A DNA stretch of 24,811 nt from a virus (IMGVR_UViG_2537561977_000030:1-24811), one strand, 5' to 3'. Counted from the stretch's first letter, positions 1 through 22,635 are shown. Numbers and translations are program-made. The notes: a model not told the origin generated them from the letters alone.

Positions 1-581
1 TTACAACTCAGCTTGAGTTTGAAGTTCCTCTACAGGGTGATAACGATAAATCGTCGATATACCGATATCGTAAATAATTGCCAACTGTTTCCTGCTATAG
101 CCATTTTTGATCAGCCTTGCTATTTGTTCATGTTGCTCTTTTGTCAGTTTCGGACGACGTCCACCAATACGCCCCTGTGCACGTGCTGCTGCCAGTCCGG
201 CCAGTGTACGCTCTACAATTAATTCACGTTCCATTTCGGCTAAAGCCCCCATGACGTGAAAAAGAAACGCCCCATGGGTGTTGATGTGTCAATGCTGTCC
301 GTCAGACTACGGAAATTAACACCTTTTTCCCGCAATTCCTCAATAAGCGTGATCAGGTGTTTCATACTTCTGCCCAGTCTGTCCAGCTTCCAGACAACCA
401 GCGTATCTCCTTCTGATAGCGTTCTGAGCAGTTTTTTCAATCCCGGTCTGGCTGATTTCGTTCCGCTGATTTTATCTTCAAAAATCAGTTCACATCCTGC
501 GCAGTTCAGTGCATTGCGTTGTAAATCCGTGTTCTGGTCATTTGTTGACACACGAATATAGCCAATTTGCATAAAAAACAT
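1..581 (-). pseudogene. Serine DNA invertase (Hin/Gin/Pin/Cin family) split by a 1-nt frameshift
   Basis: ORF 240-581 gives an N-terminal resolvase catalytic domain (IGYIRVSTNDQNTDLQRNAL...VVWKLDRLGRSMKHL...SLTDSIDTSTPMGRFFF). ORF 1-252 in another frame gives the C-terminal part (MGALAEMERELIVERTLAGLAAARAQGRIGGRRPKLT...). Adding one A to the A5 run at 259-263 restores a continuous ...MGRFFFHVMGALAEMERE... reading, as in Gin/Pin. Confidence 0.85.
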
Positions 582-586
582 CCTCT

Positions 587-1663
587 TTGTTTCGTGAAAA
601 ATACATAGTTGGTATAGGTAGGGATAAAGACGAAAACGTTGGTTTACAGGAAACGGTAAACAAGGCTGATAACGCTGTCCAAAAGACAGGCGATACCTTG
701 TCCGGTGGACTTACTTTTGAAAACGACTCAATCCTTGCCTGGATTCGGAATACTGACTGCGCGAAGATTGGATTTAAAAATGATGCCGACAGCGACACTG
801 ATTCATACATGTGGTTTGAAACAGGCGACAACGGCAATGAATATTTCAAATGGAGACACCGCATCATTGGCACCCGGCCTAAAGACCTGATGAATCTTAA
901 ATGGAATGCTTTGTCTGTTCTTGTTGAAGCCCTTTTCAGCAGTGAAGTGAAAATATCGACAGTCAATGCACTGAGGATATTTAATTCATCTTTTGGTGCC
1001 ATTTTTCGTCGTTCTGAAGAATGCCTGCATATCATCCCTACACGAGAGAATGAGGGAGAAAATGGTAATATAGGGCCATTACGCCCCTTTACGCTTAATC
1101 TCAGAACTGGCCGGATAAGCATGGGGCATGGTCTTGATGTTACAGGGGATATATTTGCAAACCGTTTTGCAATTAACAGTAGTACCGGCATGTGGATTCA
1201 TATGCGTGACCAGAATGTTATTTTGGGACGTAATGCGGTATCCACTGATGGTGCTCAGGCTTTGCTCCGTCAGGACCATGCCGACCGCAAATTTATGATT
1301 GGCGGTCTGGGAAATAAGCAATTTGGCATCTACATGATTAATAACTCAAGGACAGCCAATGGCACCGATGGTCAGGCGTACATGGATAATAACGGGAACT
1401 GGCTTTGCGGCTCGCAAGTTATTCCCGGCAACTATGGCAATTTTGATTCCAGATATGTGAAAGATGTTCGACTTGGTTCACAGCAATATTATGGAGTGAA
1501 CAACTGGCAAACATGGAATTTTCAGTGCCCGTCAGGCTATGTACTGACGGGGATTAACGTACAGGATACCGGAAAAAACTCTGCCGATAATATTGCAGGC
1601 GTTCATTACAGGCCAGTGCAAAAGTATATAAATGGCACTTGGTATAATGTGGCGAGTATTTAA
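587..1663 (+). CDS. Alternative tail-fibre C-terminal cassette (S'v-like), silent in this orientation; the exchangeable part is about 640-1663
   Basis: Translation contains [36 protein letters not shown]... and ends [11 protein letters not shown], paralleling the C-terminus of the minus-strand fibre (INGTWYNAGSI). It starts at the crossover site and has no constant N-terminal part of its own. Confidence 0.7.
627..652. other. hix/gix-like 26-bp recombination site A (invertase crossover site)
   Basis: Plus strand AAGACGAAAACG TT GGTTTACAGGAA. Its reverse complement TTCCTGTAAACC AA CGTTTTCGTCTT shares a 14-bp arm plus core with site B at 3702-3727, in inverted orientation. Confidence 0.7.
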
Positions 1664-1664
1664 T

Positions 1665-2192
1665 ATGATGCACTTAAAGAACATAAAAGCAGGTAATGCT
1701 AAAACAGTGGAGCAGTATGAGTTAACAAAGAAGCACGGAGTCATCTGGCTTTACTCTGAGGACGGAAAAAACTGGTATGAGGAAGTGAAGAACTTTCAGC
1801 CAGACACAATAAAGATTGTTTACGATGCAAATAATATTATTGTCGCCATCACCAAAGATGCCTCCACGCTTAACCCTGAAGGTTATAGCGTCGTTGAGGT
1901 TTCTGATATTACAGCTAATCGTCGTGCTGATGATTCCGGTAAGTGGATGTTTAAGGACGGAGCTGTGGTTAAACGGATTTATACGGCTGACGAACAGCAA
2001 CAACAGGCCGAATCACAAAAGGCCGCATTGCTTTCCGAAGCTGAATCAGTCATCCAGCCGCTGGAACGCGCTGTCAGGCTGAATATGGCGACGGACGAGG
2101 AACGCACACGACTGGAAGCATGGGAACGCTACAGTGTTCTGGTCAGCCGTGTGGATACGGCAAAGCCAGAATGGCCACAAAAGCCTGAGTAA
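1665..2192 (+). CDS. Tail-fibre assembly protein, alternative copy (U'-like)
   Basis: The N-terminus [23 protein letters not shown]...[13 protein letters not shown]...NFQPDT parallels the minus-strand U-like protein. ATG lies 2 nt after the S'v stop. Confidence 0.8.
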
Positions 2193-2197
2193 AAATT

Positions 2198-2217
2198 AAG
2201 GCCCGATATCGGGCCTT
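2198..2217. terminator. Bidirectional hairpin between convergent U' and U genes
   Basis: Perfect 20-bp palindrome AAGGCCCGATATCGGGCCTT, flanked by an A-run on one side and a T-rich stretch on the other, at the centre of the invertible segment. Confidence 0.5.
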
Positions 2218-2220
2218 GTT

Positions 2221-2754
2221 TCATTCTGGTTGTTCGGGAAACGTTACTGGCAGGCTGGAGGTGTCTGTGGATTCGACCTTCTGCGCATAGAGCATCCACT
2301 CGGTTAATTTTTGTTTATTCTCGTCGGAAATAATGCCCAGCCGTAGCTGTGAGTCCCACAGCTGGGTTTTATCCCTGACGAGCTGTAGCAGGCTTTGCTT
2401 TTCATTTTCCGCTTGTTGCCTCTGCTCTTCCCCGGTATAAGTTCGCTTTATCACTACGCCATCTTTGAACATCCATTTACCTGAAATATCAGCCCGGCGA
2501 TTTGCTGTAATATCAGGAACCTCAACGACGCTTGCGCCTTCCGGATTAATTGCTGAAACATCCTTTTCAATACAAATAATAACGCCGTTGTGGTCATAGA
2601 CCATTTTCAACGTATCAGGCTGAAAGTTCTTTTGTTCCTCATACCAGTTTTTCCCATCCTCTGTATAAAGCCATTTGATGTTAAATTGCTTTGTTAGCTG
2701 GTATTGCTCTTTTGTTTCAGGATTACCAGCAGAAATGTTTTTTAAGTGCATCAT
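2221..2754 (-). CDS. Tail-fibre assembly protein (Mu U / P2 G-like)
   Basis: 177-aa ORF MMHLKNISAGNPETKEQYQLTKQ...[13 protein letters not shown]...; start is 2 nt after the fibre stop. Confidence 0.85.
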   Translation of the reverse strand: MMHLKNISAGNPETKEQYQLTKQFNIKWLYTEDGKNWYEEQKNFQPDTLKMVYDHNGVIICIEKDVSAINPEGASVVEVPDITANRRADISGKWMFKDGVVIKRTYTGEEQRQQAENEKQSLLQLVRDKTQLWDSQLRLGIISDENKQKLTEWMLYAQKVESTDTSSLPVTFPEQPE

Positions 2755-2756
2755 CG

Positions 2757-4045
2757 TTAAATACTCCCCGCGTTATACCACGTCCCATTAATGCAATACT
2801 GAATTGGCCTTGCCTGTGTTGTATCAATTAATTCATCACGGTTTCCGTTAACTGAACCCGTAACGACATAACCTGACCTGTCAGACCATCCGGGACCATT
2901 CCATGTCTGAACAGATGACAGACCGCCCAGGCGAATACCTGTAATAAACCTTGAGTTACATTCTGCCTGCGTGTATGCACCAACATCTCCCGCTGATGGC
3001 TTACGTGTTGTGGTGTAGAATTCTGACCAGTCAGCCTCAAATCCATAACCATCACGCGCTGAACGATAAAAAATACCGCCGTTCTTATAATTCACACGGA
3101 ACTGTACGGCAGGGCAACTCCCCGTATTCATATTGAAGTGGAGTATTAATGCTGTTGCGCCTTTGATATCTGCATCATAAACACCGCTATTCCAGTTCCA
3201 GCCAACAGCTTTATCATTTGCAACCCTGCTTCCTGTTTGCCCTAAAGCAAATGCAGGCTGCTGGTTTTTCGTGTTGTAGTCTCGTCGCCAGCCAGGAGCG
3301 TAAGCATCACCATGATTAATATAGGTGAATTGAGCGTTAGTGATTCCGCCGCCGCTGGACGTGCCCGGCGTGGTAACGCGTATGGTCATTGCGCCACGAG
3401 TGCCAGTAACTTCCACAACAGCACCTGCAAGACAAATATTTCCGCAACCTGTATCTGTAATGACCTTATTATTTGCATAAGCCCATGAGCCTTTGCACAT
3501 CCAGTAAGGATGGTTAAATGCCCCCTGACTCTCCAGCCACGAAATAAATTGCGCAGTTGTCCAGACCTGACTATCGCCACCAATATCCACCCATGCGCTA
3601 TATGCGCGACAGGCACCAATATTTTTGGTGAAGGTATCTTTTCCTGGAATATCTGCGCCGTTCTGGTTTTTCTGTAATGCGCCAGAAGCCTGATTTATCG
3701 CTTCCTGTAAACCAAGGTTTTTGACAAACAGCGCAGGATCAGGAATATCTGCGCCGTTCTGGTCTTTAGCCAGCTTTTCCGCCAGCTTGTTCAGTACCGT
3801 AGTCGCAAAGTTTGGATCATTACCGAGAGCGTCAGCCAGCTCTTTAAGCGTATCCAGTGTCTCAGGGGCGCTGCCTGCAAGTGCCGCAAGTGCTTTGGCC
3901 ACAAACTCCGTTGTCGCCAGCTTTTTGCTGTTATCGCCATTTGCAGGTGTAGGTGCTGTTGGTGTGCCGGTGAATGCCGGACTGGCTTTCTGTGCGTACC
4001 GGGTATGCGGGTCTGCTGCCGCGATGTGTTTCGCAAGGTCAGCCC
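2757..4045 (-). pseudogene. Tail-fibre gene, C-terminal portion (constant part to 3716, variable Sv part 3715-2757), severed from its start by the IS
   Basis: Translation has tail-fibre hallmarks (GADLAKHIAAADPHTRYAQKASPAFTGTPTAPTPANGDNSKKLATTEFV...NLGLQE...INGTWYNAGSI). The ORF in the track (2757-4169) takes its first 41 codons from inside the IS. Confidence 0.8.
3702..3727. other. hix/gix-like 26-bp recombination site B inside the tail-fibre ORF
   Basis: TTCCTGTAAACC AA GGTTTTTGACAA closely resembles hixL (TTCTTGAAAACCAAGGTTTTTGATAA) and encodes N-L-G-L-Q-E on the minus strand. Confidence 0.75.
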
Positions 4046-5339
4046 CTGAGGAATCCCCAGAAAACAAGACAGGCATAGTGAGATGTGATCTAATTGATTG
4101 TGCTAACAATTTCAAGGAGATCACCACTATGCCTGCACGTTCATTATGCCAAAATTTCCTTAACAACATACTGGCCCCTTTGCATCTTTACCGTCAAAAA
4201 TCACTGATTGACGCAACTAATGCTGTAATAAATGGCGCTTCCCTCACACTTACCAGTATCGGGCGTCATTTAACCGGTACGGCATCAGTTAAAAACAAAA
4301 TAAAGCGGGTGGATCGACTGTTGGGGAATCGACATTTGCAAAATGAGGTTTCCACCATTTTTCAGCGAATTACCCAAAAGATTACGCGGGGAATGTCTCG
4401 TGTTGTGATACTCATTGACTGGAGTGCTTATCATGCCTCTCGTTTTCAGCTTTTGCGGGCAAGCCTGGCATGTGACGGGCGTTCTTTACCGTTGATGAGT
4501 TGTGTCGTTCCATCATCACAGACAGCGAATGCAGATGTACATGAGCGTTTTCTGGAATCGCTTGCTGAGTGCTTTTCCCCCGGGACTGATGTCATTGTTA
4601 TTACAGATGCCGGTTTTCAGGGGCGATGGTTCCAACAGCTCCGCTCCCGTGGCTGGACCTATATTTGCCGGGTACTGGGCAATCATTATTACAATGTTGG
4701 TAATGGCTGGGAAAAGGTGTCGGACTCAGGCACAAAAGCATCAACGACAGCAATTTATTTAGGTGAAGGCCTGCTGGGTCGAGATAAAAATGCACAACAT
4801 GAAGGGCATTTTTATCTTTATAAAAGTAAGCCTAAAGGTCGTAGATTTAAACGCTCGAAGGAAAGAGCAACCAGACCATCGGTGACGGCTAAAGCTCGTA
4901 CTGCCGGGAAATCACCATGGTTTATTTTCACAAACAGTACTGAGTTCTCGCCAAAACAGGTAATGAAATTATACAGCCGTAGAATGCAAATTGAGCAAAA
5001 TTTCAGGGATGAAAAAAATCCTCGCTGGGGATTTGGACTACGGTTTGGTGCCAGTCATTCATCCGGGCGGGTCACGGTATTGAGTCTGATCGCAACATTA
5101 GCCAGTATCATTATGTGGTTAAGCGGTTTCAGCCTGGAAAACAAAGGGATACATCATAAATATCAGGCAAATACAGTGAAGCACAGGCGAGTCATCTCGT
5201 TATTAAAACTGGCGGAGAATGTGATTCGACATTCTCCACTCATACTAAACACACTGTCACTTGACGCAGGGCTGAAAGTTCTACAGCAACGGTATACCAA
5301 TATGATAATGGTTTACTAAATTTTCTGGGGATCCCTCAG
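4046..5339 (+). mobile_element. IS4-family (IS10-group) insertion sequence, about 1.29 kb
   Basis: 19-bp terminal inverted repeats CTGAGGAATCCCCAGAAAA (4046-4064) and, reverse-complemented, CTGAGGGATCCCCAGAAAA (5321-5339). Flanked by direct repeat AGGTCAGCCC (4036-4045 and 5340-5349). One transposase ORF. Confidence 0.85.
4129..5319 (+). CDS. IS10-like DDE transposase (396 aa)
   Basis: ATG at 4129 preceded by AAGGAGA. Translation aligns with remembered IS10 transposase blocks (KRVDRLLGNRHL..., IVITDAGF..., YSRRMQIEQNFRDEK...). The upstream part of track ORF 3721-5319 is a read-in artefact. Confidence 0.85.
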   Translation: MPARSLCQNFLNNILAPLHLYRQKSLIDATNAVINGASLTLTSIGRHLTGTASVKNKIKRVDRLLGNRHLQNEVSTIFQRITQKITRGMSRVVILIDWSAYHASRFQLLRASLACDGRSLPLMSCVVPSSQTANADVHERFLESLAECFSPGTDVIVITDAGFQGRWFQQLRSRGWTYICRVLGNHYYNVGNGWEKVSDSGTKASTTAIYLGEGLLGRDKNAQHEGHFYLYKSKPKGRRFKRSKERATRPSVTAKARTAGKSPWFIFTNSTEFSPKQVMKLYSRRMQIEQNFRDEKNPRWGFGLRFGASHSSGRVTVLSLIATLASIIMWLSGFSLENKGIHHKYQANTVKHRRVISLLKLAENVIRHSPLILNTLSLDAGLKVLQQRYTNMIMVY

Positions 5340-5506
5340 AGGTCAGCCCCGCCTTTTTCAACCTGTTGCTTCAGGTACAGCGTGCGGCTGGCCAGTTGTT
5401 TACCCTGACGGTTAGAAATTCCGTCAGGTCCGCCCAGAACGGGGTCAGAGACCTCAATCTGGTAGATGCCGTTTTCCCACTGCGGGGTTTCGGGTAGATT
5501 TGCCAT
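5340..5506 (-). pseudogene. Tail-fibre gene, N-terminal fragment (about 55 codons) separated by the IS
   Basis: ATG at 5506 follows the gpI-like stop by 2 nt and reads MANLPETPQWENGIYQIEVSDPVLGGPDGISNRQGKQLASRTLYLKQQVEKGGAD. Removing 4046-5349 rejoins it in frame with 2757-4045. Confidence 0.75.
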
Positions 5507-5508
5507 AA

Positions 5509-6087
5509 TTAACTGCTCCCGTGGTTGTAACTACCGTTATAACGGGTAGTACTGTTGTAGCGAATGGCGACAGACTGATATTCCAGACTTGCCAGATGAC
5601 AGCGAGCCGGAGCAAAGGCAGCAAGCGTCTGACGTAACAGCGCCGCCTGATCATTAGTGATGGGCTGTTGAAGGATGACCCGATAGACAGCCCAGGCTTG
5701 TGCATCGCCGTGGACGAAAAGTCCGTTGTAACTGTGTTTACCGTCGTAGCCGATCTGCCCTGTCCCTTCAATCAGCTCCACTTCGCCGAAGCCAAAACGG
5801 CGGATAATTTCCCGGATTGACCACGGTGTTCCTTTATAGCGGTGTAGCTCGATAGCGGATTTGATAAGCATGCGGCGTACATCGTCAGATTCCGCCAGTT
5901 CCCAGCCATCGCCGAACAGCGAGAACTGCTCGCCCAGCCATGGCAGCGCGGAACTGTCGACGATATCGACGAGACAGACCATCAGTACGCTCAGGTCGAT
6001 GTTATCCAGCCGTCCGGCCAGTCTTCCCAGCGTTCTGAGACTGATATCACCCTCAAGCGGTGGCGGGAGTTGTAGCGCCTCAGCCAT
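5509..6087 (-). CDS. Baseplate/tail protein (P2 gpI / Mu gp48-like)
   Basis: 192-aa ORF immediately upstream of the fibre gene and overlapping the J-like gene end; position and size match. Confidence 0.7.
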   Translation of the reverse strand: MAEALQLPPPLEGDISLRTLGRLAGRLDNIDLSVLMVCLVDIVDSSALPWLGEQFSLFGDGWELAESDDVRRMLIKSAIELHRYKGTPWSIREIIRRFGFGEVELIEGTGQIGYDGKHSYNGLFVHGDAQAWAVYRVILQQPITNDQAALLRQTLAAFAPARCHLASLEYQSVAIRYNSTTRYNGSYNHGSS

Positions 6088-7183
6088 CGGACACCCCTGT
6101 CATGTTAAGAGTGATCGCCGTACAGTTTGCCCATTCGTTTTCTGCAACCACCCGCAGTGCCGGTGTCACCAGTTCAACCTGGTACACCCCGGAAACGGAC
6201 AATGCACTGATAATCTGGCTGGGGACAATATCGCGCCCCAGCGTGGCGGCACGTGATGCCACCCAGTTCTGTATGGCGCTGTTAGCGTTGTCCTTTACCG
6301 ACCTTGCATCCTGATCACGATAGATCGTAATCCTGGCTTCAATGGTGTAATCCACCTGAACAGGTGTTTTAGCCCGCACGGTATCAGTGAGTGGTCTGAC
6401 TTTTTCGTCAGAACAGAAACTCTCTACCAGAGTGAGGATACCGCTGTCCGGCAGACCAGTGCTGAGCAGCGGATACAGCTCGACAGTGCCGGGAGCGGGA
6501 GAAAGAACAGCGACGTCAACAATGCTGGGATGCGCCCCCATAGCATGAAAACGGTATGCACCACGGCTTCCGGCATTGGTGAATGACTCCGGGGCCAGCC
6601 TGATACGCTCCCGGAGCCGGTCATTGTCTTCCTGCTCTGAACCGCCAGAGCTGGCCGTCAGATTGGTCACCAGCAGGTCAACGTTATCAATCTCATCAAG
6701 CAACTGACTGACCTGCGCAGGTTGCCAGCCGTTGCCAGAGGTACCCGGTTCGGTACAGGTGGCCGGGGCATTGACCAGCAGCAATCCGGCCTTCAGCACC
6801 ACATCTGTATCGGTGGCAAAAATAATACTGTCGGAAGCGCTGACGCGGGTGCCTGCCGGGATCAGCACATCAATGGCCAGTGCCTCATCCACAGAGAACT
6901 GAAGTGTGGTGGTGGCAGGCTGCGCGGCAAGGCGGTATACACCAACCAGTTCTCCGAGGTAATCAATCATTGGCTCCCGGGAAAAGGCGACCAGATTCAG
7001 CTTCGCCGCCTCCTGTACCGCCACCCTGACCAGCATTTCGCGATAGGCCCACAGGTCTATCAGCAGACGTTCTGCCTGTGCCGGATACAACGTTTTGCCG
7101 GTATCCGCTTCATACTTCGCAATCATTTCTGCCGTGATTTTATCGGCATCGCGTTCAATAAAATCGGGTTCTGTCAGCGCCAT
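6080..7183 (-). CDS. Baseplate assembly protein J (P2 gpJ / Mu gp47-like)
   Basis: 367-aa ORF; position between W-like and I-like genes; J-family-like sequence. Confidence 0.75.
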   Translation of the reverse strand: MALTEPDFIERDADKITAEMIAKYEADTGKTLYPAQAERLLIDLWAYREMLVRVAVQEAAKLNLVAFSREPMIDYLGELVGVYRLAAQPATTTLQFSVDEALAIDVLIPAGTRVSASDSIIFATDTDVVLKAGLLLVNAPATCTEPGTSGNGWQPAQVSQLLDEIDNVDLLVTNLTASSGGSEQEDNDRLRERIRLAPESFTNAGSRGAYRFHAMGAHPSIVDVAVLSPAPGTVELYPLLSTGLPDSGILTLVESFCSDEKVRPLTDTVRAKTPVQVDYTIEARITIYRDQDARSVKDNANSAIQNWVASRAATLGRDIVPSQIISALSVSGVYQVELVTPALRVVAENEWANCTAITLNMTGVSDG

Positions 7184-7521
7184 AGCAGTTCCTGAGTACG
7201 GGGTTGTCCGTCTGAGCCTTTCCAGCTCACCCGGAGCGTAAGATGTTCGCCGTCGACGGCGGGTTTAACCGACATAAGCTGGCAGCGGGGTTCCCAGCGC
7301 CTGATGGCATCGACGGATTCGCGAACCACATGCGTAATGGCCCGGTCGACAGGCCAGTCGATATAAAGGTGCAGATTACTGCCGAACTCCGGGCGATGCG
7401 GGTCGCTGCCGCGGGGAGTCCGCAGGATGATCTGAATGGACTGCCGGATATCATCCAGCCCCCGGACGATTTCGCCGGGAGCCTGCAGAGCCGGTTGCCA
7501 GAATACTGAGGTCGTTTTCAT
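7174..7521 (-). CDS. Baseplate wedge protein W (GPW/gp25 family)
   Basis: 115 aa, with the ILRTPRGS...WEPR pattern typical of P2 gpW-like proteins. Confidence 0.75.
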   Translation of the reverse strand: MKTTSVFWQPALQAPGEIVRGLDDIRQSIQIILRTPRGSDPHRPEFGSNLHLYIDWPVDRAITHVVRESVDAIRRWEPRCQLMSVKPAVDGEHLTLRVSWKGSDGQPRTQELLWR

Positions 7522-7553
7522 GGGGGGCAGTATTGCCCCCGGAAGGGAACGCC

Positions 7554-7574
7554 GATATTAAAGGCGTTTAAGAA
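7554..7574 (-). promoter_or_regulatory. Conserved 21-bp motif, copy A (candidate activator-dependent late promoter)
   Basis: GATATTAAAGGCGTTTAAGAA on the plus strand is 19/21 identical to 13346-13366. On the minus strand it reads TTCTTAAACGCCTTTAATATC, containing a TAATAT -10-like hexamer with no good -35. Confidence 0.4.
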
Positions 7575-7577
7575 ATC

Positions 7578-8090
7578 TCAGTGCGAGTGATGATTAGAGT
7601 TCTGACCATCAGACAGCATACTACCTGTCGAGTGGGCATTACCGTTAATTTCAAGGTCGCCATTCACCGTGGTGGTGTCAGCAGTCAAATCAATGGTTTT
7701 CCCCTTCAGGCTGATACCCACTGCAACCTCGATCACCACATGCTCAATACCTCCTTTGACCGTCAGCGTATGGGTCGCGCGGTTATAACTGAACTCCGCG
7801 CCATCCGCGTATTTCGTGCCCCGGACGTTTTTATCACTGAACGGCGGTTTATCGACGTCTGAGTACACCGCGCCCAGAATGACACCATCCTCGCCGTTGG
7901 CATCGAGCAGCACCTCAACCTGCTCCCCCACGTCAGGGAGCCAGTAATCCTTGTTATCCTGGGTATTGCGCTGCAGCACGTTAAGCCAGTTTGTGCGCAG
8001 GTTATCGCATTCAGGCAGACGAACGCGGGCCTGAACCCTGTCGGCATCAACGGCACTGACCGTACCGACCTGACGGGTGACACCTGTCAT
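7578..8090 (-). CDS. Baseplate spike/assembly protein V (P2 gpV / Mu gp45-like)
   Basis: 170-aa ORF with V-family-like sequence; position between D-like and W-like genes. Confidence 0.7.
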   Translation of the reverse strand: MTGVTRQVGTVSAVDADRVQARVRLPECDNLRTNWLNVLQRNTQDNKDYWLPDVGEQVEVLLDANGEDGVILGAVYSDVDKPPFSDKNVRGTKYADGAEFSYNRATHTLTVKGGIEHVVIEVAVGISLKGKTIDLTADTTTVNGDLEINGNAHSTGSMLSDGQNSNHHSH

Positions 8091-8106
8091 TTTTTCTTCT
8101 CCTTAA

Positions 8107-9240
8107 TCACCGTCGATGTACTGCCATCCGGGTGATAAACCGTGAGTTTCTGAGTTTTTGTTTTTTCCCTCTTGTGACTGGCCCCCGTGCCACTTCCAGC
8201 TCGGTGGTGTAGCCGCTGTTACGCTCAAACGCATGGCGGGCAGTGGTTATGAGCCATGGCCCGGATAACTGTCCAAAGCCCACCAGTTCAATTTTGTTGC
8301 CTGCTGTCAGTTGAGGCGTTCCCGTCAGCGTCAGGGAGCCGTTCTGCTGATATTCGTTATGTCTGGCCAGTGCTGAATCCGCTTTAATCCGGGCACTGTC
8401 CGGGTCGCTGACGCGGCTGTTAACTTTAAGTGAGTCAGCGCTGGTAACCTTACCGCCTTTGAGCTTTTTGTCGCTTTCACGGGTACCACCATCAGCTTCG
8501 TAGACGATCAGTTTTTTACTGCTGCTTTTCTGGTGTTTTACCTTTGCAGATTTATAGACCCGGTTGATGGTGTCACGCAGGGAAAAGCGGGCCACATCCT
8601 GCGGTTTTAACTGCCTGACCGGCTCCTGACTGCGCAATGTGGCCAGATGAGAAAAAATCAACTGGTCACTGACCACTTTCACTGCATAACCATACCCGCT
8701 GGCCAGCCGGCGCAGAAAACCCACGTCGGTTTCAGCATACTGGGTCACCCGGTCGATTCTGATGGACTCAATGCTGCCCACCAGTTTCAGTCGGTGCTTT
8801 CTGGCAATCCGCCCCGCAACAGCTGCCAGCGTGGTGTTCTCAAAACCACGGCTGGATTTAGTCCGCAGAGCACTGTTAACCGAGGTGGCCACCCCACGGA
8901 TAGCGACAACGGACGCGGGCGAACTCACTTCGATCTCGTCTATTGAGAATGTACCGCAGGACAGCAGTTTCTCGCCCTGATAACCCATTTTCAGCGTCAG
9001 CGTGTCACCCTTGCCCGGATACCACTTATCCAGCCAGCGGCCATCGGTGTCGTCCAGCTCCACCTCAATGGTATCGGACTCATTTTTGATGTTATCGCTC
9101 CAGACCACACGGGTGACATAAGGCGCGATATCAGAGGTGATATTTTTCTGCAGATACCACAGCGTGAACACCGGCGTCAGCACCTCGCTGACGCCGGTTA
9201 ACGCTGATGTGGCTTGCGCAGTGCTGTTTATCTCAGCCAT
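8107..9240 (-). CDS. Tail/baseplate hub protein (P2 gpD / Mu gp44-like)
   Basis: 377 aa; C-terminal ...GNKIELVGFGQLSGPWLITTARHAFERNSGYTTELEV resembles the gpD family; position after X and U. Confidence 0.7.
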   Translation of the reverse strand: MAEINSTAQATSALTGVSEVLTPVFTLWYLQKNITSDIAPYVTRVVWSDNIKNESDTIEVELDDTDGRWLDKWYPGKGDTLTLKMGYQGEKLLSCGTFSIDEIEVSSPASVVAIRGVATSVNSALRTKSSRGFENTTLAAVAGRIARKHRLKLVGSIESIRIDRVTQYAETDVGFLRRLASGYGYAVKVVSDQLIFSHLATLRSQEPVRQLKPQDVARFSLRDTINRVYKSAKVKHQKSSSKKLIVYEADGGTRESDKKLKGGKVTSADSLKVNSRVSDPDSARIKADSALARHNEYQQNGSLTLTGTPQLTAGNKIELVGFGQLSGPWLITTARHAFERNSGYTTELEVARGPVTRGKKQKLRNSRFITRMAVHRR

Positions 9241-13612: not shown

Positions 13613-13663
13613 GCCCGGTGACGCACAGCGCCCCCCCTTTGTCAGTCAGTTCAACGCTCACCG

Positions 13664-17112: not shown

Positions 17113-17484
17113 TTATTTACTGATACCGGTGATGAGATACCCGGCATCGCCACCCACCACGGCGACTTTGTAGATATCGGTATAACGGCAGTACTTCACC
17201 TTGCCGCCGGCCCCGTCGTATTTGTCTGCAACAGGCATCCCCTTACGACGCAGGGTGTAGCCGAAGGACGGCTCGTTCTCGTCCGCGCTGTCCGCCCCGA
17301 CGGCACGCTCGGTGTCATATTCCACAAAGGCGGTTTTTCCGAAGGTCGGTACACGCACGCCTTCCTTGTCCGTCAGCACGACGGGGAAAATACGTTCGCC
17401 GATGAATGCAGCATTTTTATAGCCACGGGCGATACTGGTCAGTACCGGATCAACGACACGTTTACCTTTTAAGTAATCAGACAT
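17113..17484 (-). CDS. Hypothetical 123-aa head-region protein
   Basis: ORF between the protease/scaffold and the DUF2190-like gene; no family recognised. Confidence 0.45.
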   Translation of the reverse strand: MSDYLKGKRVVDPVLTSIARGYKNAAFIGERIFPVVLTDKEGVRVPTFGKTAFVEYDTERAVGADSADENEPSFGYTLRRKGMPVADKYDGAGGKVKYCRYTDIYKVAVVGGDAGYLITGISK

Positions 17485-17498
17485 GCTCTCTTCTTAAA

Positions 17499-18614
17499 TT
17501 ACAGGCAGCGTGCGACAGCAGCCTCATAGCTGATGCCTTCTTTTTTCGACAGGGCCACTGCTTTCTGATGCAGGGCCAGACGCTCAGGATCGGCTTCCGC
17601 AAACTCCGCCACATCCACCTTCACCGCGTCGCCGACACGATCCTTTGTGGCCTGTTCGGCGAAGTTCATCACCGGCTCCCCGTCGGAGAGCAATGAACGG
17701 AAGGCGGTGGCCAGCGGTGTGCGGCTTTCCCCCTCAGCAAACTCCACCGGCTTGTCGCCACCGGCGACGGCATCCAGCAGGGCAACCACCACGGAGGAGG
17801 CGCGGGGAGCCAGACGACCCTCTGCGACCAGTTTTTCTGCAAAGGCCACATTGTCCTTATGCAGTTGCTCCTGTCTGGCCTGTGCATCACGCGCATCGCG
17901 ATCAGCAGCCTGCTGCTTCAGGTGGCGGTTCTCCTCCTGAAGGGCTTCAATCTCTTCTTTTGTCATCGATGATTCCTCGTTACTTGCGGAAGACGGCACA
18001 TGGCCTGTCTCACTGAATTGCGCACCTGCTGCATCCTGCGACGGTGTGTCGCGGTACGCCTCTTCGCGCAGACTGTTGAGCTGCCATTCCGGCAGGACTT
18101 TTTCTGCCTCGTCCAGACTGAAGCGGGCGATCAGAAAATCGCGCAGCTTTCCCCACAGTGAGGCATTCGTGATGGCCTGCCAGTCGGCGAACTCCACCAC
18201 ACCTTCTTCCTGCTCACTGAAGGACACCTGTTTCAGCCCTTTGACGGAAGGTGGCTGTGCCCCGAGAAAGCCCACATGGCGCAGGTAGAGTACGCCGGGC
18301 TTCGGATTGGACGGTGAATCCGGGAGGTAAAAAGAGGCGGACACTTTTTTGAATCGTCCGTCGGTGACCATCTCAGCAAACTGCGGGTCCAGTTGGGCAG
18401 GCTCTGCCATCAGATCGACGCCGCTGAGCGACAGGGTTTTCACCCAGCCCCACGCCGGGTCTTCCGTTCTGGGATGACCAATCACGAGTGGTGCTTCATG
18501 GACGGACGGGTCATAGGCTTTCACGCAGGCGGCAAGATCGTCTGGCGTGAACGGCAGTTTTTTGCCGTGCATATCGGTATGAGTACCGGCTTTAAAAATG
18601 TGAATGGCTGACAT
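17499..18614 (-). CDS. Head maturation protease/scaffold (Mu gpI-like)
   Basis: 371 aa; an N-terminal protease-like domain and a charged coiled-coil C-terminal half (EEIEALQEENRHLKQQAADRDARDAQARQEQ) typical of scaffolds. Confidence 0.65.
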   Translation of the reverse strand: MSAIHIFKAGTHTDMHGKKLPFTPDDLAACVKAYDPSVHEAPLVIGHPRTEDPAWGWVKTLSLSGVDLMAEPAQLDPQFAEMVTDGRFKKVSASFYLPDSPSNPKPGVLYLRHVGFLGAQPPSVKGLKQVSFSEQEEGVVEFADWQAITNASLWGKLRDFLIARFSLDEAEKVLPEWQLNSLREEAYRDTPSQDAAGAQFSETGHVPSSASNEESSMTKEEIEALQEENRHLKQQAADRDARDAQARQEQLHKDNVAFAEKLVAEGRLAPRASSVVVALLDAVAGGDKPVEFAEGESRTPLATAFRSLLSDGEPVMNFAEQATKDRVGDAVKVDVAEFAEADPERLALHQKAVALSKKEGISYEAAVARCL

Positions 18615-18828
18615 TTTGCTGTCCCGCGTTATGTTGTCGGAGACAGTTTGTGAGAAATGCAGGCCCGGCGATTTTAATCTGCTTTAGAAAACATCAGGGG
18701 AGAAGGACAGGGAAAGCAATGCGGTGAACCGGAGGCGGTTATAAAACAGAGGCTGTAAAGCCTTTATAAAGGTAATACAGCCCCTCAGTTGCTGGCAATG
18801 ATAAATCACCCGCCTGAAGGGAGAAACC

Positions 18829-19287
18829 TCAGCGACGGGCCGCTGATTCAAGATGGCGGACAATGGTATCGAGGATGGGGATTACCACTTCAGGCTGTAG
18901 TTCTCCATCCCCCGTCACCGGCAGGAACGGGCGGGCCGGAAGTTCAACGGACTCATTACGCCCCGTTTTACCCCCGAACTGGTGAATGGCACCGTAAACA
19001 ACGTTGGTCCCCACAACAGCCTGCCGGTCGTCATGGTCGGTTGATACTGACCCCATCAGACGCCCGGTATCCTGCAGTGTCTGTCCGTCACGTTCTTCCG
19101 CTGCCAGCGAGGGCATCCACCCCGGACGCCCCTCATCAAGAAAGTTAAACTGTGTTTCCGCCAGCAGGGTTCCGGCGATTTTGCGCATCGCGGGCTCCAT
19201 GTCTGTGGCAGCAAGATCCAGCGCACGGAGGCTCCGGCGCAGGGAGTCATCGTTAATGGAGATACTGACCAGATTGTCGGAAGCCAT
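18829..19287 (-). CDS. Virion morphogenesis protein (Mu G-like)
   Basis: 152-aa ORF directly downstream of the F-like gene; size and position match Mu G. Confidence 0.6.
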   Translation of the reverse strand: MASDNLVSISINDDSLRRSLRALDLAATDMEPAMRKIAGTLLAETQFNFLDEGRPGWMPSLAAEERDGQTLQDTGRLMGSVSTDHDDRQAVVGTNVVYGAIHQFGGKTGRNESVELPARPFLPVTGDGELQPEVVIPILDTIVRHLESAARR

Positions 19288-19289
19288 TG

Positions 19290-20111
19290 TTATCCTCTCA
19301 GTTCCTGTTGTGCCAGTGGCTGAAGCGTACCCTGATAGCGGGCAAGGTCGGGACGGTATGCTGCCCCCGGTGCATAAGACCAGCCGACGTCGGTGGTCAC
19401 CTTCGTGGTGCCGGTATTAAAGGTGGCCACGTTCCGCATTTCGCCGGTTTTCTCTGAGACCAGTTTCAGTTCATGGCCCATGGCAGAGCCGGAGCTGATA
19501 ACCTTCAGGCCACGGGCACGTACATCCGCCGCACTCAGGGCAATCACACTACAGCGGCAGCGCCAGCCGTTCGGCGGGTAAAATGCCTGCCAGAACGGGT
19601 CATCCCAGCGCAGCACCAGACCATGCAGCGCCAGATGGCTCCTGCGGGTATGGCTGTCGTTGATGCCGGTATACATCCAGTACGGCCTGTCGTCGACGTT
19701 TTCCATCTGTTCCGCCCAACGACCGGCGCTGTAGAGTACGGACATATTGGTGCGAAAGATGGTATCGAGCCGCCACGAACTGCCCTGCTGAATGGTGACC
19801 GGCTCACCCGTTACCGGGTCAGTCGTGTCACTCGGTCCCCACCATCCCCTGCGCTTCAGCGCCGGCTCCAGCTCCTGCCGGAACCAGCGATCGGTTTTTC
19901 CTTCATCGACAGCCTGCTGCAGTGTCCCACGAATATCTTCCAGGATATCCAGGCGGGTCACTTTAGCGACGGTAAAGGCGCGGGCATGGGCTTCCTGCCA
20001 CATTTCTTCCCAGTCCCAGGTAATCTGATACCCTTTGGACTTCAGGTAGCTGATTGCCCGCTTCGGGGGAAGCGTCATGCAGTACGCCAGTTCAGCCGTT
20101 GTCACGCTCAT
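19290..20111 (-). CDS. Head morphogenesis protein (Mu F / SPP1 gp7 family)
   Basis: F-family-like sequence. Likely ATG at 20111 with a GGGGG ribosome-binding site; the track start at 20138 is TTG. Confidence 0.75.
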   Translation of the reverse strand: MSVTTAELAYCMTLPPKRAISYLKSKGYQITWDWEEMWQEAHARAFTVAKVTRLDILEDIRGTLQQAVDEGKTDRWFRQELEPALKRRGWWGPSDTTDPVTGEPVTIQQGSSWRLDTIFRTNMSVLYSAGRWAEQMENVDDRPYWMYTGINDSHTRRSHLALHGLVLRWDDPFWQAFYPPNGWRCRCSVIALSAADVRARGLKVISSGSAMGHELKLVSEKTGEMRNVATFNTGTTKVTTDVGWSYAPGAAYRPDLARYQGTLQPLAQQELRG

Positions 20112-21108
20112 GCAGACGCCCCCAGATATTTGCCACAAAGAGAATGCGGGCCAGCCGTTCCTGCAGATCGTCCGTGTTCATCTGAGGGTAGAGCTCCGCC
20201 AGTTCGCCCAGCAGCTCAGACGGGTTAACCCCATTTTCGACCCGCTTAAACAGAGGTGCCAGGACGGGTTCCAGCGTGCCATTTAACGCGCCTCCGTTCA
20301 TCAGAATGTCCAGCGCGTCGTCAAGCTGCTGCTGAGCCTGAATATCGGCATCAATCGCCTCGGCAAATGACAGCGGCAACATGTTCTTCTCGCGTTCTGA
20401 CGGTGGTGTCTCGTCAATATCGCCGTCCTGCAGCTGGTACTCACGCTTAAAGTATTGCGGGGTCAGACGCAGACCCGCCCGGGTGAGTTTTTCGTCGCGG
20501 GTGGCACGGGTGTCATCAATGGCCTCCTGTTCCCACATGGCCCAGACCGGACACGGCACATCGCCGAAGTTCAGGGTGACCACCGTTCTGATGACCTGAT
20601 TCACTGCCGCCTGAATGATGTCCGCATCCGCATCGCGGATATCAGCCGTTACCTCCAGCCCGGCCTGTGCAGAGGCCTTGTTACTGTTCGCTTCCGTGGT
20701 CTGATTCTGACCGAGTAATGCAATGGAGATCTCACTGCGTGACAGCGTGATCAGCTCGCGGAATACCTCGCTGCTGTCCGCCTTGCCATCCGCGGCTTTG
20801 AGTTCGATGCTGCTGTCATCGGGGATGGCGGCCACCGCGTCCTCCACCATCTGCTCCATGGAGTCCAGCAGTTTTTCAATCTCTGCATCATTTGCACCCC
20901 TCGGGTGCTTACCGATCACCCACGGGGAGCCAAACTTTTCGGCAAAGCGGAGCCAGAATTTCATCCCGCCTTTCTTGAAGGCGACCGGCCAGAAGCACAT
21001 GGACAGATCCGGAAAACCGTAAGGATTGTCATAGGATGCATCCTGTGCCGGCACCACGAATTTTGACGGTGACAACAGCTCACCCTCCACACCCGCATCA
21101 CGTGCCCG
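20092..21108 (-). pseudogene. Portal protein (Mu gp29 / DUF935-type), N-terminally truncated remnant
   Basis: About 335 codons where DUF935 portals run about 500. An in-frame stop lies immediately upstream at 21109-21111, and there is no credible start or ribosome-binding site. Confidence 0.65.
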
Positions 21109-21145
21109 TCATGGAATTCTCCCGCCCTGACAGGGAGGACTCGCA

Positions 21146-21418
21146 ATGATTACCCCACAGGAAGCACGACAGCGCACCCGAACCCTTGTTGAACACTATG
21201 TCAACGAGTGTGAATACCGCGACCTCACCGATGTGAAGCACGTCCTGACGGCGCTAATCAGCATGGCCGCTCAGGCCATTGTGGCGACCAACGGAAAGGC
21301 GGCTGCCCTGCAGGTACTGGTGAACACACTCACCCACACGGCAGAGCATGAGGTGCCGTACCGGATGGAAACCACTGCAGAAGGCGGCCTGCACATCACC
21401 GTCAGCCGGAAGCACTGA
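21146..21418 (+). CDS. Hypothetical 90-aa protein
   Basis: ATG preceded by GGGAGG; first gene of a plus-strand operon. Confidence 0.55.
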   Translation: MITPQEARQRTRTLVEHYVNECEYRDLTDVKHVLTALISMAAQAIVATNGKAAALQVLVNTLTHTAEHEVPYRMETTAEGGLHITVSRKH

Positions 21419-21427
21419 GGGCGCGGC

Positions 21428-21724
21428 ATGACACGAAACACCGAACTCACCCGCACCGCCCTCTACCGTCTGGCCCTGCAGCGTTTCGGGCCGGACGCAC
21501 AGGCCCTGAAACTGACAGAAGAGGCCGCTGAACTGGCGGCCAGTGCTGCCCGCAATCTGAACGGACAGGGCAGCGAAAGTGACCTCGCGGCAGAGCTGGC
21601 AGACGTGGAAATCATGACAGAGCAACTGCGCCTTCAGGGGATGGACCGGCTGATTGACTTCCACAAACAGAAAAAACTGGAACGTCTGGCTGCACGACTG
21701 GGCGTGATTTACACGAACGAGTAA
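21428..21724 (+). CDS. MazG-like nucleotide pyrophosphohydrolase (small, phage type)
   Basis: 98 aa with an EEAAELAASAA...ELADVEIM arrangement matching the EExxE...ExxD metal-binding pattern of the MazG/HisE-like fold. Confidence 0.55.
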   Translation: MTRNTELTRTALYRLALQRFGPDAQALKLTEEAAELAASAARNLNGQGSESDLAAELADVEIMTEQLRLQGMDRLIDFHKQKKLERLAARLGVIYTNE

Positions 21725-21738
21725 CCGGGAGGCATTCA

Positions 21739-21955
21739 ATGGCTGACATACTCAGGGAAATCACCGCATGGACACTGATTCTTACTGGCCTGGCGACATG
21801 CCTCAGTACGGGGGGCAGCCCTGGCTGCCCTGCTGATGCACATAACAACACAGTGGTTATGGGAAAAGCTTAAAGCAGCATACAGCCTGAAAGAGCTGTC
21901 CGACGCTGTCCGGGCATGGAAACGGCAGAAAAATACCGGAGATACTGAACAATGA
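21739..21955 (+). pseudogene. Small membrane-protein gene apparently frameshifted at a G6 run
   Basis: ATG at 21739 with a GGGAGG ribosome-binding site reads MADILREITAWTLILTGLA... The downstream frame, which ends in a TGA overlapping the next gene's ATG (ATGA), is reached by removing one G from 21810-21815. Confidence 0.35.
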
Positions 21956-22635
21956 CAGATCAGAATAAACACATTGAGAAACTGAAAAAGTTGCTGGCGC
22001 TGGCTGCATCCGGCAACCCGCACGAGGCCGCTCTTGCACTGCGCCGTGCCCGTAAACTGATGGATGTTCACGGCATCACACATTCCGACATAGCCATGAG
22101 TGATATTGATGAAACCATCAGTCACTACTGGCCGACAGGCAGCCTCCGTCCACCGCGCTACATGCCAGGCCTGATGAACATCATCCGCGAGGCATTTGGT
22201 GTTAACTCCATCATTCACCCCGGCACATATCCGGGTGTGGGGTTCTACGGCAACCGGGAACGGGCCGCACTGGCTGCGTACACCTGGGAGGTGCTGGCCC
22301 GCCAGTTGAAAAAGGCGCGTCAGCAATATATCAGCGCACAGAACAAAAGAATAAAAACTGCCACCCGTACCAGCCGTGGTGACCAGTTTGCTGAAGGCTG
22401 GGTGCTGGCCGTTATCAGTGAAATACAGTCCTTCGCCCTGACCGATGACGAACGTGAACTGATGCAGCAGTGGCTGGAACATAAATACCCGCAAACGCAA
22501 ACCACCAGGGCGCGTAAACCGGGAAGAAGTCGCAATGGCGACGCCTCGCGCTATGCGGGGTTTCGTGAAGGGCAGAACGTCAGACTGCACCGCCCGGTCA
22601 GTGGGCAGGAACAACAGAAACTGGAGGCCAGATGA
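21952..22635 (+). CDS. DUF2786-like domain protein
   Basis: 227 aa; N-terminal KHIEKLKKLLALAASGNPHEAALALRRARKLM motif as recalled for DUF2786; ATGA start overlap with the upstream gene. Confidence 0.5.
   Translation: MTDQNKHIEKLKKLLALAASGNPHEAALALRRARKLMDVHGITHSDIAMSDIDETISHYWPTGSLRPPRYMPGLMNIIREAFGVNSIIHPGTYPGVGFYGNRERAALAAYTWEVLARQLKKARQQYISAQNKRIKTATRTSRGDQFAEGWVLAVISEIQSFALTDDERELMQQWLEHKYPQTQTTRARKPGRSRNGDASRYAGFREGQNVRLHRPVSGQEQQKLEAR

Follow-up and report, generated by a model that had tools for sequence, protein, structure and literature searches.

Understanding of invertible tail-fibre segments, among them Mu G, P1 C, e14 P and p15B Min, goes back to the 1980s, and the prophage analysed here raises the question of whether a 3.1-kb segment bounded by two short inverted sites is another such switch, and what state it is in. 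The window (the whole stretch of DNA analysed, 24,811 nucleotides) comes from E. coli LT-68, and the element that carries the segment, at its right end, is a transposable prophage of BcepMu-like type, not Mu. I conclude that the locus is, with high probability, a genuine Mu G-type invertible tail-fibre segment, that is, a Din-family, Fis/enhancer-type serine-invertase switch carried by this BcepMu-like prophage. Its features, in window coordinates, are as follows.

1-581, minus: serine DNA invertase, Din family, Min/Gin type; last prophage gene, frame broken
259-263: A5 run (T5 on the coding strand; A6 in relatives), breaking the frame at the start of oligomerisation helix E
488-551, minus: candidate recombinational enhancer at the invertase gene 5' end; two Fis-type G-N13-C 15-mers, 49 bp apart
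627-652: crossover site A, on the invertase side; outer half-site 627-638, core TT 639-640, inner half-site 641-652
653-1663, plus: silent alternative fibre tip, Mu Sv-type, 336 codons (homology)
1665-2192, plus: chaperone paired with the silent tip, Mu U-type, 175 aa (Pfam Caudo_TAP, E = 2e-37)
2197-2218: central palindrome, predicted bidirectional intrinsic terminator (palindrome, fold, terminator score)
2221-2754, minus: chaperone of the cassette now fused, Mu U'-type, 177 aa (Pfam Caudo_TAP, E = 7e-37)
2757-3701, minus: tip now joined to the constant part, Mu S'v-type, 314 codons (homology)
3702-3727: crossover site B, within the fibre gene; inner half-site 3702-3713, core AA 3714-3715, outer half-site 3716-3727
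3728-4045, minus: 3' portion of Sc, the fibre constant region, belonging to the BcepMu-like backbone, within the restored 481-aa ORF
4046-5339, plus: ISEc60 (IS4 family, IS10-like) in the fibre gene at ~codon 53; transposase 4129-5319
5350-5506, minus: fibre gene 5' end, first ~52 codons, severed by the IS (restored ORF)
21100-21108: junction of a 12.85-kb internal prophage deletion, 9-bp overlap (alignment to relative L026)

Crossover sites and cassettes

An earlier note on this DNA had placed two inverted 26-bp sites with unlike outer half-sites at 627-652 and 3702-3727, and both sequences were found at these positions. The plus strand at site A reads AAGACGAAAACG TT GGTTTACAGGAA, the reverse complement of which is TTCCTGTAAACC AA CGTTTTCGTCTT, and site B reads TTCCTGTAAACC AA GGTTTTTGACAA; the two sites agree in 12/12 positions of the inner halves, 2/2 of the cores and, as recounted, 7/12 of the outer halves. 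Their central dinucleotides are equal (AA at 3714-3715; TT at 639-640, which is AA on the other strand), and religation after 180-degree rotation needs the same central dinucleotide in both Din sites. The 20-mer TTCCTGTAAACCAASGTTTT, common to both sites, occurred exactly two times in the 24.8-kb window, on opposite strands, and allowing two mismatches added no further copy; 100 dinucleotide-preserving shuffles yielded no match at all. Around the sites, the inverted repeat extends further, pairing 633-684 with 3670-3721 (52 nt, 75%). A search of the window with AAACCNNGGTTT at no more than one mismatch found no third site, and a shufflon-like system with extra cryptic crossover sites was rejected, none being found in the window.

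A Din site was defined as a 2-bp core between 12-bp half-sites of imperfect symmetry, following the pattern TTC---AAAC- -A -GTTT---GAA. An alignment to hix, gix and cix had been proposed earlier, and both sites do fit the published table of Din-family sites (hix/gix/cix/pix/mix/bix; PMC3241671). The inner half of site A matched gix/bix at 12/12 positions, while its outer half matched the published mixMI''L' site at 11/12 and, like that site, does not keep to the terminal GAA; for site B, the corresponding values were 12/12 to gix (inner) and 11/12 to hix (outer). The outer half and core of both sites are identical to those of BcepMu-like relatives, and homology to the backbone ends inside the sites (1-645 and 3709-4046). 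The sites are thus chimeric, with gix-type inner halves and with cores and outer halves of the backbone's own mix/hix type.

Between the sites, two fibre 3' ends lie in opposite orientation, each with its own chaperone gene and each in frame with the constant 5' part outside the segment; the two tip and chaperone cassettes converge on a predicted central bidirectional terminator. A perfect, overlapping 14+14 palindrome at 2198-2217 occupies the point of convergence, folds at -17.3 kcal/mol (z = -4.1) and has a terminator-like score on either strand. The silent tip is 96.9% identical to SfMu gp52 and 66.8% identical to Mu S residues 175-503, and matched PDB 5YVQ/9KI1 ('Tail fiber protein S', E = 1.8e-136), and its chaperone is 89.7% identical to Mu U and 92.6% to SfMu gp51. 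The tip now in use is 95.2% identical to Mu S' and 94.9% to SfMu gp49 and matched PDB 8JU3 (E = 1.4e-210); its chaperone is 100% identical to SfMu gp50 and 97.7% to Mu U'. The cassettes had been described as convergent around a central palindrome and divergent in sequence, which holds, with only 40% identity between the last ~75 residues of the tips and 57% between the chaperones. The labels of that description (Sv-U on the minus strand, S'v-U' on the plus strand) were swapped: by Mu nomenclature, the minus-strand cassette is S'v/U' and the plus-strand cassette Sv/U. The two tips would be expected to confer different host ranges, given their identity to Mu S' (95%) and to the S-type tips of Mu and SfMu (67-97%).

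Inversion of the segment and damage to the prophage

The constant region at 3709-4046 is 98-99% identical to that of BcepMu-like relatives and is interrupted by ISEc60, a copy with 100% identity to annotated ones, terminal inverted repeats and a DDE_Tnp_1 domain, flanked by the direct target duplication (A)GGTCAGCC(C) at 4036-4045 and 5340-5349. The element cuts the remainder of the fibre gene off from the late promoter and the first ~52 codons. Site B does lie within the fibre gene, as the earlier note had it, but the ORF at 2757-4169 is not the whole gene, its 5' end lying in ISEc60. In-silico removal of the IS gave a 481-aa fibre matching the intact protein of E. coli 53638 (P0042), and in-silico inversion with the IS removed gave a 503-aa fusion that occurs as an intact natural protein in Shigella sp. 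PNUSAE096546 (P0052). Both fusions are in frame, in agreement with the proposal that inversion would swap the fibre tip together with its cognate chaperone. The IS-free empty site was seen in one relative (L023), where the 503-aa fibre is intact. As side observations, the severed 5' end is called as a 56-aa ORF in L016, and the truncated fibre ORF (2757-4067/4074) has its start inside the IS end.

Copies of the same prophage at the same chromosomal site (aes-hemH-adk-htpG) supplied natural examples of both orientations, whose detection the earlier note had suggested. L020 is collinear with the window (99.6%), while in L022 and L023 the stretch 633-3721 is inverted (99.1%) between collinear flanks, with the crossover mapping to 639-652 and 3702-3715. 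L020 and L022 both carry ISEc60 and have the segment in opposite orientations; this prophage has flipped in recent history, even after the IS landed. I also queried complete E. coli genomes with the junctions as they stand and as inverted in silico, which returned only ~80%-identical full-length matches (10 and 4 genomes) and led to the pair ETEC6 and ETEC-2264, in which the homologous segment is inverted (99.8%) between sites equal or nearly equal to the published bixL/bixR. A P2-like prophage segment was likewise found in both orientations (L011 vs L012). In three independent systems, the inversion breakpoints lie in Din-type sites, and the invertase gene adjoins the segment every time.

The steps of inversion can be taken from the established Gin/Hin/Cin/Pin/Min mechanism. 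Invertase dimers would bind the two 26-bp sites, and synapsis would be helped by Fis bound to the enhancer inside the invertase gene; both strands would then be cut at the central AA/TT dinucleotide, rotated by 180 degrees and religated, flipping 641-3713. In the present state, Sc (5506 down to 3716, minus strand) would be joined in frame to the Mu S'-type tip and U'-type chaperone (481 aa), and in the alternative state to the Mu S-type tip and U-type chaperone (503 aa), with read-through of either cassette stopped by the central hairpin. Dependence on Fis and the enhancer and cutting at the core dinucleotide are probable by analogy. In Din systems, the enhancer consists of two Fis sites ~48 bp apart, in cis, in the 5' part of the invertase gene. 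Here, the candidate Fis 15-mers GTGTCAACAAATGAC and GCGCAGGATGTGAAC are found at positions 22 and 71 of the gene, where Mu gin too carries matching 15-mers. When promoters were scanned for, no convincing sigma-70 candidate for the invertase turned up near site A; hits were fewer than in shuffles, and none was positioned to drive the invertase or the fibre.

The remainder of the prophage is also damaged. Window 17287-21108 aligned with L026 2713-6534 and window 21100-23804 with L026 19386-22089, and an alignment to PhiKM shows the same deletion break; the deleted stretch includes the portal 5' end, terminase, lysis genes, methylase, repressor region, DDE transposase, a MuB-like gene and gam. 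The intact fibre gene, late transcription and complete genome of a viable phage are therefore not found here, with ISEc60 in Sc and 12.85 kb deleted. Given the IS-split fibre gene, the broken invertase frame and this loss, the locus, a switch of the right type, is no longer the host-range switch of a viable phage; the LT-68 switch no longer does its job.

The invertase frame and rival readings

The invertase frame is split into ORFs of 110/113 aa and 83 aa, with a stop after ...GRFFFTSWGL. Alignment to Mu and SfMu gin, to BcepMu-like relatives and to the sibling copies L020, L022, L023 and L024, all of which have six A, located the break in the A6 run at 258-263, which is one base short in LT-68, and adding one T restored an invertase of 190-193 aa. 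The restored protein matched the Gin structures 4M6F/3UJ3 (E = 1e-91, 137/183 identical), has the Pfam domains Resolvase and HTH_7 and the YIRVSTNDQ motif with the catalytic serine, and is 94.5% identical to the invertase of p15B/P1-like phage-plasmids. The one-base loss is either a true mutation or an assembly error, and it bears on the autonomy of the switch, not on its class.

Of the ways to read this break, an artefact of the LT-68 draft holds up best and has somewhat less than an even chance: a homopolymer under-call would leave the invertase intact and flipping autonomous, though for a phage the flip would change nothing, fibre gene and prophage both being broken. A6 and an intact 190-aa invertase are found in all four sibling copies, and within 8.2 kb, LT-68 has two private indels relative to them (258-263 and 8155-8159), both a loss of one base in a 6-mer run, while the flanks differ from the siblings by two substitutions only and the downstream 83-codon ORF has no further damage. 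The T5 state, however, is not confined to LT-68: other assemblies and contexts show it too, the exact 110-aa product being found in 94 indexed blocks, with 42 contigs listed, and in 2/5,426 complete RefSeq genomes, which indicates that real one-base losses happen at this run. A third run difference (C5 vs C6 at 4577-4581) favours LT-68 as the correct and intact version, so the draft does not under-call uniformly.

It is less probable, yet deserving of attention, that the frameshift is real, that LT-68 makes no compatible invertase and that the segment is locked in the S'-type orientation as a frozen relic. The break falls just before helix E and the DNA-binding domain, leaving a 110-aa product without either, and the rarity of the T5 allele, with the two complete genomes just mentioned and none in IMG/VR, is expected of a loss-of-function mutation. 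If the base loss is real, only an invertase supplied in trans from another prophage could still flip the segment. E. coli genomes commonly hold several Din invertases, and Gin, Cin, Pin and Hin act in trans on each other's sites. Such supply argues against a permanent lock, with PinQ acting on e14 as a case in point (PMC12529663), as does the P2-like prophage found in both orientations (L011 vs L012) with the same T5 allele.

Programmed frameshifting within the invertase gene was also considered. Other carriers of the T5 break include P1-like phages as well as P2-like and BcepMu-like prophages; without exception the downstream ORF is intact, differences between alleles are nearly all synonymous, and slippage by -1 in the P site at U_UUC would yield exactly GRFFFHVMG. 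It was rejected as the main reading because the allele is rare, because the nearest alleles in each background have T6 (L004 and L017 differ at two codons, and the LT-68 siblings are all T6), and because several T5 carriers are visibly error-laden assemblies (L014, L015, L017, L018, L006 and L007). Taken together, these point to recurrent one-base loss at a 6-mer run, by mutation or by miscalling.

A long shot is that the host has kept the switch, for example as a PinQ/StfE2-like device offering alternative receptor-masking fibre fragments against incoming phages, with the A6 run as a heritable lock. This could be so because the segment flipped after ISEc60 had split the fibre gene and because the truncated ORF starts in the IS end; IS10-type elements carry an outward promoter at their end. 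Fainter still are the chances that the flips arose by RecA-dependent homologous recombination between inverted fibre-gene repeats and not by site-specific exchange: the repeats do exceed the 26-bp sites (52 nt) and the chaperone genes are inverted repeats as well, but the 52-nt repeats are 75% matched with a longest identical stretch of 14-20 bp, and the breakpoints fall exactly in Din-type sites beside an invertase gene in all three systems. The reading implicit in the earlier note, a working host-range switch of a viable temperate phage, is scarcely credible, since intact sites, cassettes, chaperones and terminator and an IS-free relative with an intact 503-aa fibre (L023) are set against a fibre gene split by ISEc60 and a prophage lacking transposase, terminase, portal 5' end and lysis genes.

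Relation to known switches and origin

The preferred reading, a Mu G-type switch in a BcepMu-like prophage, was then compared with known systems. The earlier note had likened the architecture to known Mu G-type switches, and the segment proved to be a true homologue, with 87-92% DNA identity to the segments of Mu, D108, SfMu and P7; homology over 633-3721 extends to those of P1 and P88. The order of Mu G/Gin is preserved (Sc, site, tip and chaperone, terminator, chaperone and tip, site, invertase), identity over 633-3721 is 86.6% to Mu and 91% to SfMu, and the window has the orientation of the SfMu record, inverted relative to the Mu G(+) record. The inner half-sites equal gix (12/12), and the tips match the solved structures of Mu S and S'. 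Unlike Mu, the window has an AA core (GA in Mu), outer half-sites that are not gix, an invertase identical to Gin at 137 of 183 positions, a fibre constant part and whole backbone of BcepMu/P2-like type, and no com/mom genes after the invertase, the last prophage gene.

The window also resembles p15B Min. The invertase-proximal outer half matches mixMI''L' at 11/12 positions, the AA core is shared, P1/p15B-like phage-plasmids with the 94.5%-identical invertase have mixMI''L' itself as the proximal site, and close BcepMu-like relatives (L004 and L005) carry 4-5 Min-type sites at the same position. In contrast to Min, a multiple-inversion system with more than two crossover sites, the window has just two sites and one invertible segment, with Mu-type cassettes. 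The C segments of P1 (Cin) and P7 share the AA core and the cassette layout, and 687-3680 is 91.4% identical to P7 and 88.5% to P1; their cix half-sites differ (9/12 inner), as does the replicon type. P1 has long inverted repeats of 0.6 kb. The Shigella boydii B segment with PinB, found here in ETEC P2-like prophages, has an identical inner half-site and is 91.5% identical to 1609-3733, but differs in its GA core, its invertase (~80% DNA identity) and its P2-like backbone. Like the window, e14 retains an invertible fibre segment (P/Pin) in a cryptic, defective prophage, although its cassettes are unrelated and its segment is smaller (1.8 kb). PinQ acts in trans on the e14 P segment, producing inversion between cryptic prophages; this sets a precedent both for inversion by an enzyme from another locus and for a phenotype at host level (PMC12529663).

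The chimeric sites, with outer halves and AA core of the backbone and inner halves of Mu type, indicate that a Mu-type cassette pair was swapped into a resident Min-like inversion locus through recombination at the very crossover sites.

The locus is thus a known type of switch in a new mosaic element, ordinary, well understood and in decay, and at ~90% identity to known segments its discovery value is small. For annotation, it should be read as a disrupted fibre gene with an IS and a possible pseudogene invertase, not as a working host-range switch. Its chimeric sites make it a clear natural case of cassettes exchanged at the very crossover sites, and the IS-split copies L020 and L022 show that the switch continues to invert in a lineage whose prophage is already defective. 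More widely, fibre-tip modules of this kind move between unrelated myovirus backbones, including those of Mu, P1/P7, P2-like and BcepMu-like phages.

Crossover sites and cassettes of the segment

The element is a Din-family invertible tail-fibre switch and a Mu G homologue; homology, crossover sites and natural inversion all supported its interpretation in the earlier note as a Mu-G-like switch. Its parts, and two lesions elsewhere in the window, are as follows.

Features of the switch and of the damaged regions (window positions)
1-581, minus strand: invertase gene, Din family, frame broken at A5, 259-263
627-652: site A, invertase side; plus strand reads AAGACGAAAACG TT GGTTTACAGGAA, reverse complement TTCCTGTAAACC AA CGTTTTCGTCTT
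653-1663, plus strand: silent fibre tip, 336 codons
1665-2192, plus strand: chaperone of the silent tip, 175 aa, Pfam Caudo_TAP
2198-2217: perfect palindrome at the point where the two cassettes converge
2221-2754, minus strand: chaperone of the joined tip, 177 aa, Pfam Caudo_TAP
2757-3701, minus strand: fibre tip now joined to the constant part, 314 codons, preceding the 177-aa chaperone
3702-3727: site B, fibre side; reads TTCCTGTAAACC AA GGTTTTTGACAA
4046-5339: ISEc60, IS4 family, IS10-like; complete, 100% identical to annotated copies
21100-21108: deletion junction with a 9-bp overlap; lacks 12.85 kb present in the intact E. coli 2014C-3075 prophage and in PhiKM

Both 26-bp sequences that the earlier note had read at 627-652 and 3702-3727 were confirmed, as was its estimate that the outer half-sites are about 7/12 alike (count, 7/12). 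The segment-facing half-sites are identical (12/12) and the central dinucleotides agree. A 20-mer common to both sites has just two occurrences in the window, one per strand, and allowing 2 mismatches adds none; it was matched in 0 of 100 shuffled windows; no third site of the AAACCNNGGTTT type is present in the window. The inverted repeat continues inward from the sites (633-684 and 3670-3721, 75% matched) because both arms encode the fibre-protein junction.

The alignment to hix, gix and cix proposed in the earlier note was carried out by counting matches against the published Din-family site table (PMC3241671), and the sites fit this family. In both sites the inner half is the same as in gix and bix (12/12); of the outer halves, the one on the invertase side agrees with the p15B site mixMI''L' at 11/12 positions and the one on the fibre side with hix at 11/12. 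The core is AA, like that of hix, cix, pix and mix; gix and bix have GA. Although the mixMI''L'-like half-site and a Min-type invertase recall the multiple-inversion system of p15B, the element is not of this type because only two sites are present.

The two cassettes converge on the central palindrome as had been described, and the palindrome scores as an intrinsic terminator on both strands, with folding much stronger than that of shuffles. They are also divergent in sequence, as claimed: the tips are alike over their last ~75 residues only (40% identity), and the chaperones share 57% identity. Judged by DNA comparison, the segment is a homologue of Mu G and not an analogue. Over 633-3721 it shares 86.6% identity with the Mu G segment and 91% with SfMu; where they align, it matches D108, P88, PhiR68_1 and the P7 C segment at about 91-92%, and identity to P1 C is 88.5%. 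The joined tip shares 95% identity with Mu S', and the chaperone that goes with it shares 97.7% with U'. The silent tip is closer to SfMu gp52 (97%) than to Mu S (67%), and has a chaperone 90% identical to U. The minus cassette thus corresponds to S'/U' and the plus cassette to S/U, so the labels first given (Sv-U for minus, S'v-U' for plus) are reversed in Mu nomenclature. Both tips match solved Mu homologues, the joined one PDB 8JU3 (E = 1.4e-210) and the silent one PDB 5YVQ/9KI1 (E = 1.8e-136).

Natural inversion among sibling prophages

The same prophage occupies the same chromosomal place in sibling strains, adjoining aes, hemH, adk and htpG, and both orientations, which the earlier note had suggested looking for, were found among them. 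CP065611.1 is collinear with the window over 1-8190 at 99.6%, IS included. In UFYN01000002.1 the flanks are collinear at 99.3-99.8%, the same IS is present, and 633-3721 is inverted at 99.1%. The IS is absent from the copy in Shigella sp. PNUSAE096546, where the segment is likewise inverted. Mismatch positions mapped the exchange to within 639-652 and 3702-3715, which covers the core and the inner half that both sites share.

Excising the IS in silico gave a 481-aa fibre, and excision plus inversion a 503-aa fibre. Both occur as intact natural proteins (P0042 from E. coli 53638 and P0052 from the Shigella isolate PNUSAE096546), whose constant part is identical to that of the window and whose few substitutions are confined to the tip. 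The earlier claim that inversion swaps the fibre tip is true of the DNA alone, since this copy cannot yield a complete fibre. ISEc60 interrupts the fibre gene near codon 53; it has 22-bp terminal inverted repeats, a 396-aa DDE transposase and a target duplication of 9-10 bp, (A)GGTCAGCC(C). A C5 run in its transposase gene (4577-4581) is C6 in CP065611.1 and UFYN01000002.1, and in the latter the transposase is broken into 263 + 153 aa.

Among the differences between LT-68 and its siblings, 25 of 28 substitutions crowd into 1135-1639, a 500-bp patch of the silent S-type tip, a pattern suggestive of gene conversion or recombination affecting the receptor-binding part.

Inversion was also found in related segments. 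The homologous segment of ETEC6 (L008 5737-8689) is inverted relative to that of ETEC-2264 (L009) at 99.8% identity and is of the PinB/bix type, one site being exactly the published bixL and the other 1 base off bixR; ETEC-2264 also has IS100 nearby. A P2-like prophage pair (L011, 5177-6936, versus L012) differs by inversion at 99.94% identity and carries the frameshifted invertase allele.

The sites, cassettes, in-frame fusions, terminator, adjacent invertase gene and natural inversion with breakpoints in the sites were all demonstrated. By the scheme of the Din family, invertase dimers would bind each site, synapsis would take place on supercoiled DNA in a Fis/enhancer-dependent manner, and a 2-bp staggered cut at the AA/TT core would be followed by 180-degree subunit rotation and religation. 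Candidate Fis sites are predicted at positions 22 and 71 of the invertase gene, the same positions as in Mu gin.

The invertase gene and its frameshift

The invertase run at 259-263 is A5 in the window versus A6 in relatives and 4/4 siblings, and the frame breaks between GRFFF and HVMG, directly ahead of helix E and the DNA-binding domain. Restoring one base gives a normal 190-aa Din invertase, which agrees with Gin at 137/183 positions and shares 94.5% identity with the invertase encoded by p15B/P1-like phage-plasmids.

The frameshift may be a real mutation: an identical 110-aa truncated product is indexed in 94 collection blocks and listed on 42 contigs, its carriers include draft P2-like prophage assemblies with other genes apparently intact, and 2 of 5,426 complete genomes contain the T5 40-mer (T5 being the run on the invertase coding strand). 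Moreover, at a third run-length difference, C5 versus C6 in the IS transposase, it is LT-68 that has the intact state. It may instead be an assembly error, given that the 8.2 kb compared hold two indels private to LT-68, each a one-base loss in a 6-mer run (invertase; gpD 3' end, 8155-8159), and that the sibling flanks differ from LT-68 by just two substitutions. A programmed frameshift at the break was judged unlikely. Whether the frameshift is real or not, the DNA substrate of the switch is intact. Din invertases act in trans on each other's sites, as established for Gin, Cin, Pin and Hin. PinQ, moreover, acts on e14 (PMC12529663).

The T5 frame break of window region 240-572 was also seen elsewhere, on at least 3 diverged invertase backgrounds, in P1-like, P2-like and BcepMu-like elements (L006, L007, L010-L019). 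Codons 1-103 of the window's invertase are nucleotide-identical to the P2-like allele of L011 and the last 85 are closest to the allele of the BcepMu-like prophage L004; the gene is therefore mosaic around the run.

Further run-length differences lie elsewhere. The run at 8155-8159 is T5 versus T6 in all relatives and siblings, and the loss frameshifts the last ~16 codons of a gpD-like late-control/tail gene (377 versus 384 aa). At 21815 the window has one G more than relatives, lengthening a run of G in a small early gene whose product has 71 aa in PhiKM; the ORFs of 60 aa or more listed for the window include none at this place. One-base differences from relatives at 7522 and 13631-13637 are apparently intergenic.

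Mosaic origin and decay of the element

The window comes from E. coli LT-68, matching ADUP01000053.1 at 100% identity. Its backbone is that of a BcepMu-like transposable myovirus with P2-type tail genes, not Mu; it shares 94.9% identity with phage PhiKM, and prophages 90-97% identical to it occur in 638 complete E. coli genomes. The right end of the BcepMu-like relatives is organised likewise: the constant fibre part is followed by variable cassettes with a site on either side, and the invertase is the last gene. Their cassettes are unlike those of the window, and they have four or five crossover sites. In the closest relatives, L004 (3562-6673) and L005 (4150-6673), four or five Min-type sites accompany several short 'Collar'-type tip cassettes; this region is a multiple-inversion (shufflon-like) system where the window has a two-site Mu-type segment.

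Backbone homology covers 1-645 (93%) and 3709-4046 (98-99%), ending inside both sites, and Mu-type homology covers 633-3721. The relatives' sites have outer halves and cores exactly as in the window and different inner halves; the window's sites are therefore chimeras. The Mu-type cassette pair displaced the resident cassettes via recombination inside the crossover sites.

Just beyond window position 1 (L016, 7572-7592), the end of the prophage lies no more than about 20 bp from the invertase stop codon, with which the window begins. The prophage abuts a 245-aa Abhydrolase_3 gene, probably aes truncated by prophage insertion, followed by hemH, adk and htpG. Towards the other end, a 197-aa ORF without a Pfam match (24218-24811) has ~82% DNA identity to the hypothetical gene that comes last at the opposite end of the intact relative prophage.

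The missing 12.85 kb holds the portal 5' third, both terminase genes, the lysis cassette, a methylase and the repressor region, together with the DDE transposase, its MuB-like partner gene and gam; the LT-68 element is incapable of transposition, packaging or lysis. It combines a Min-type invertase and its proximal half-site, Mu/SfMu-type cassettes and a BcepMu-like backbone. This kind of switch is long known; novelty lies only in this instance, with its particular mosaic make-up and its decay.
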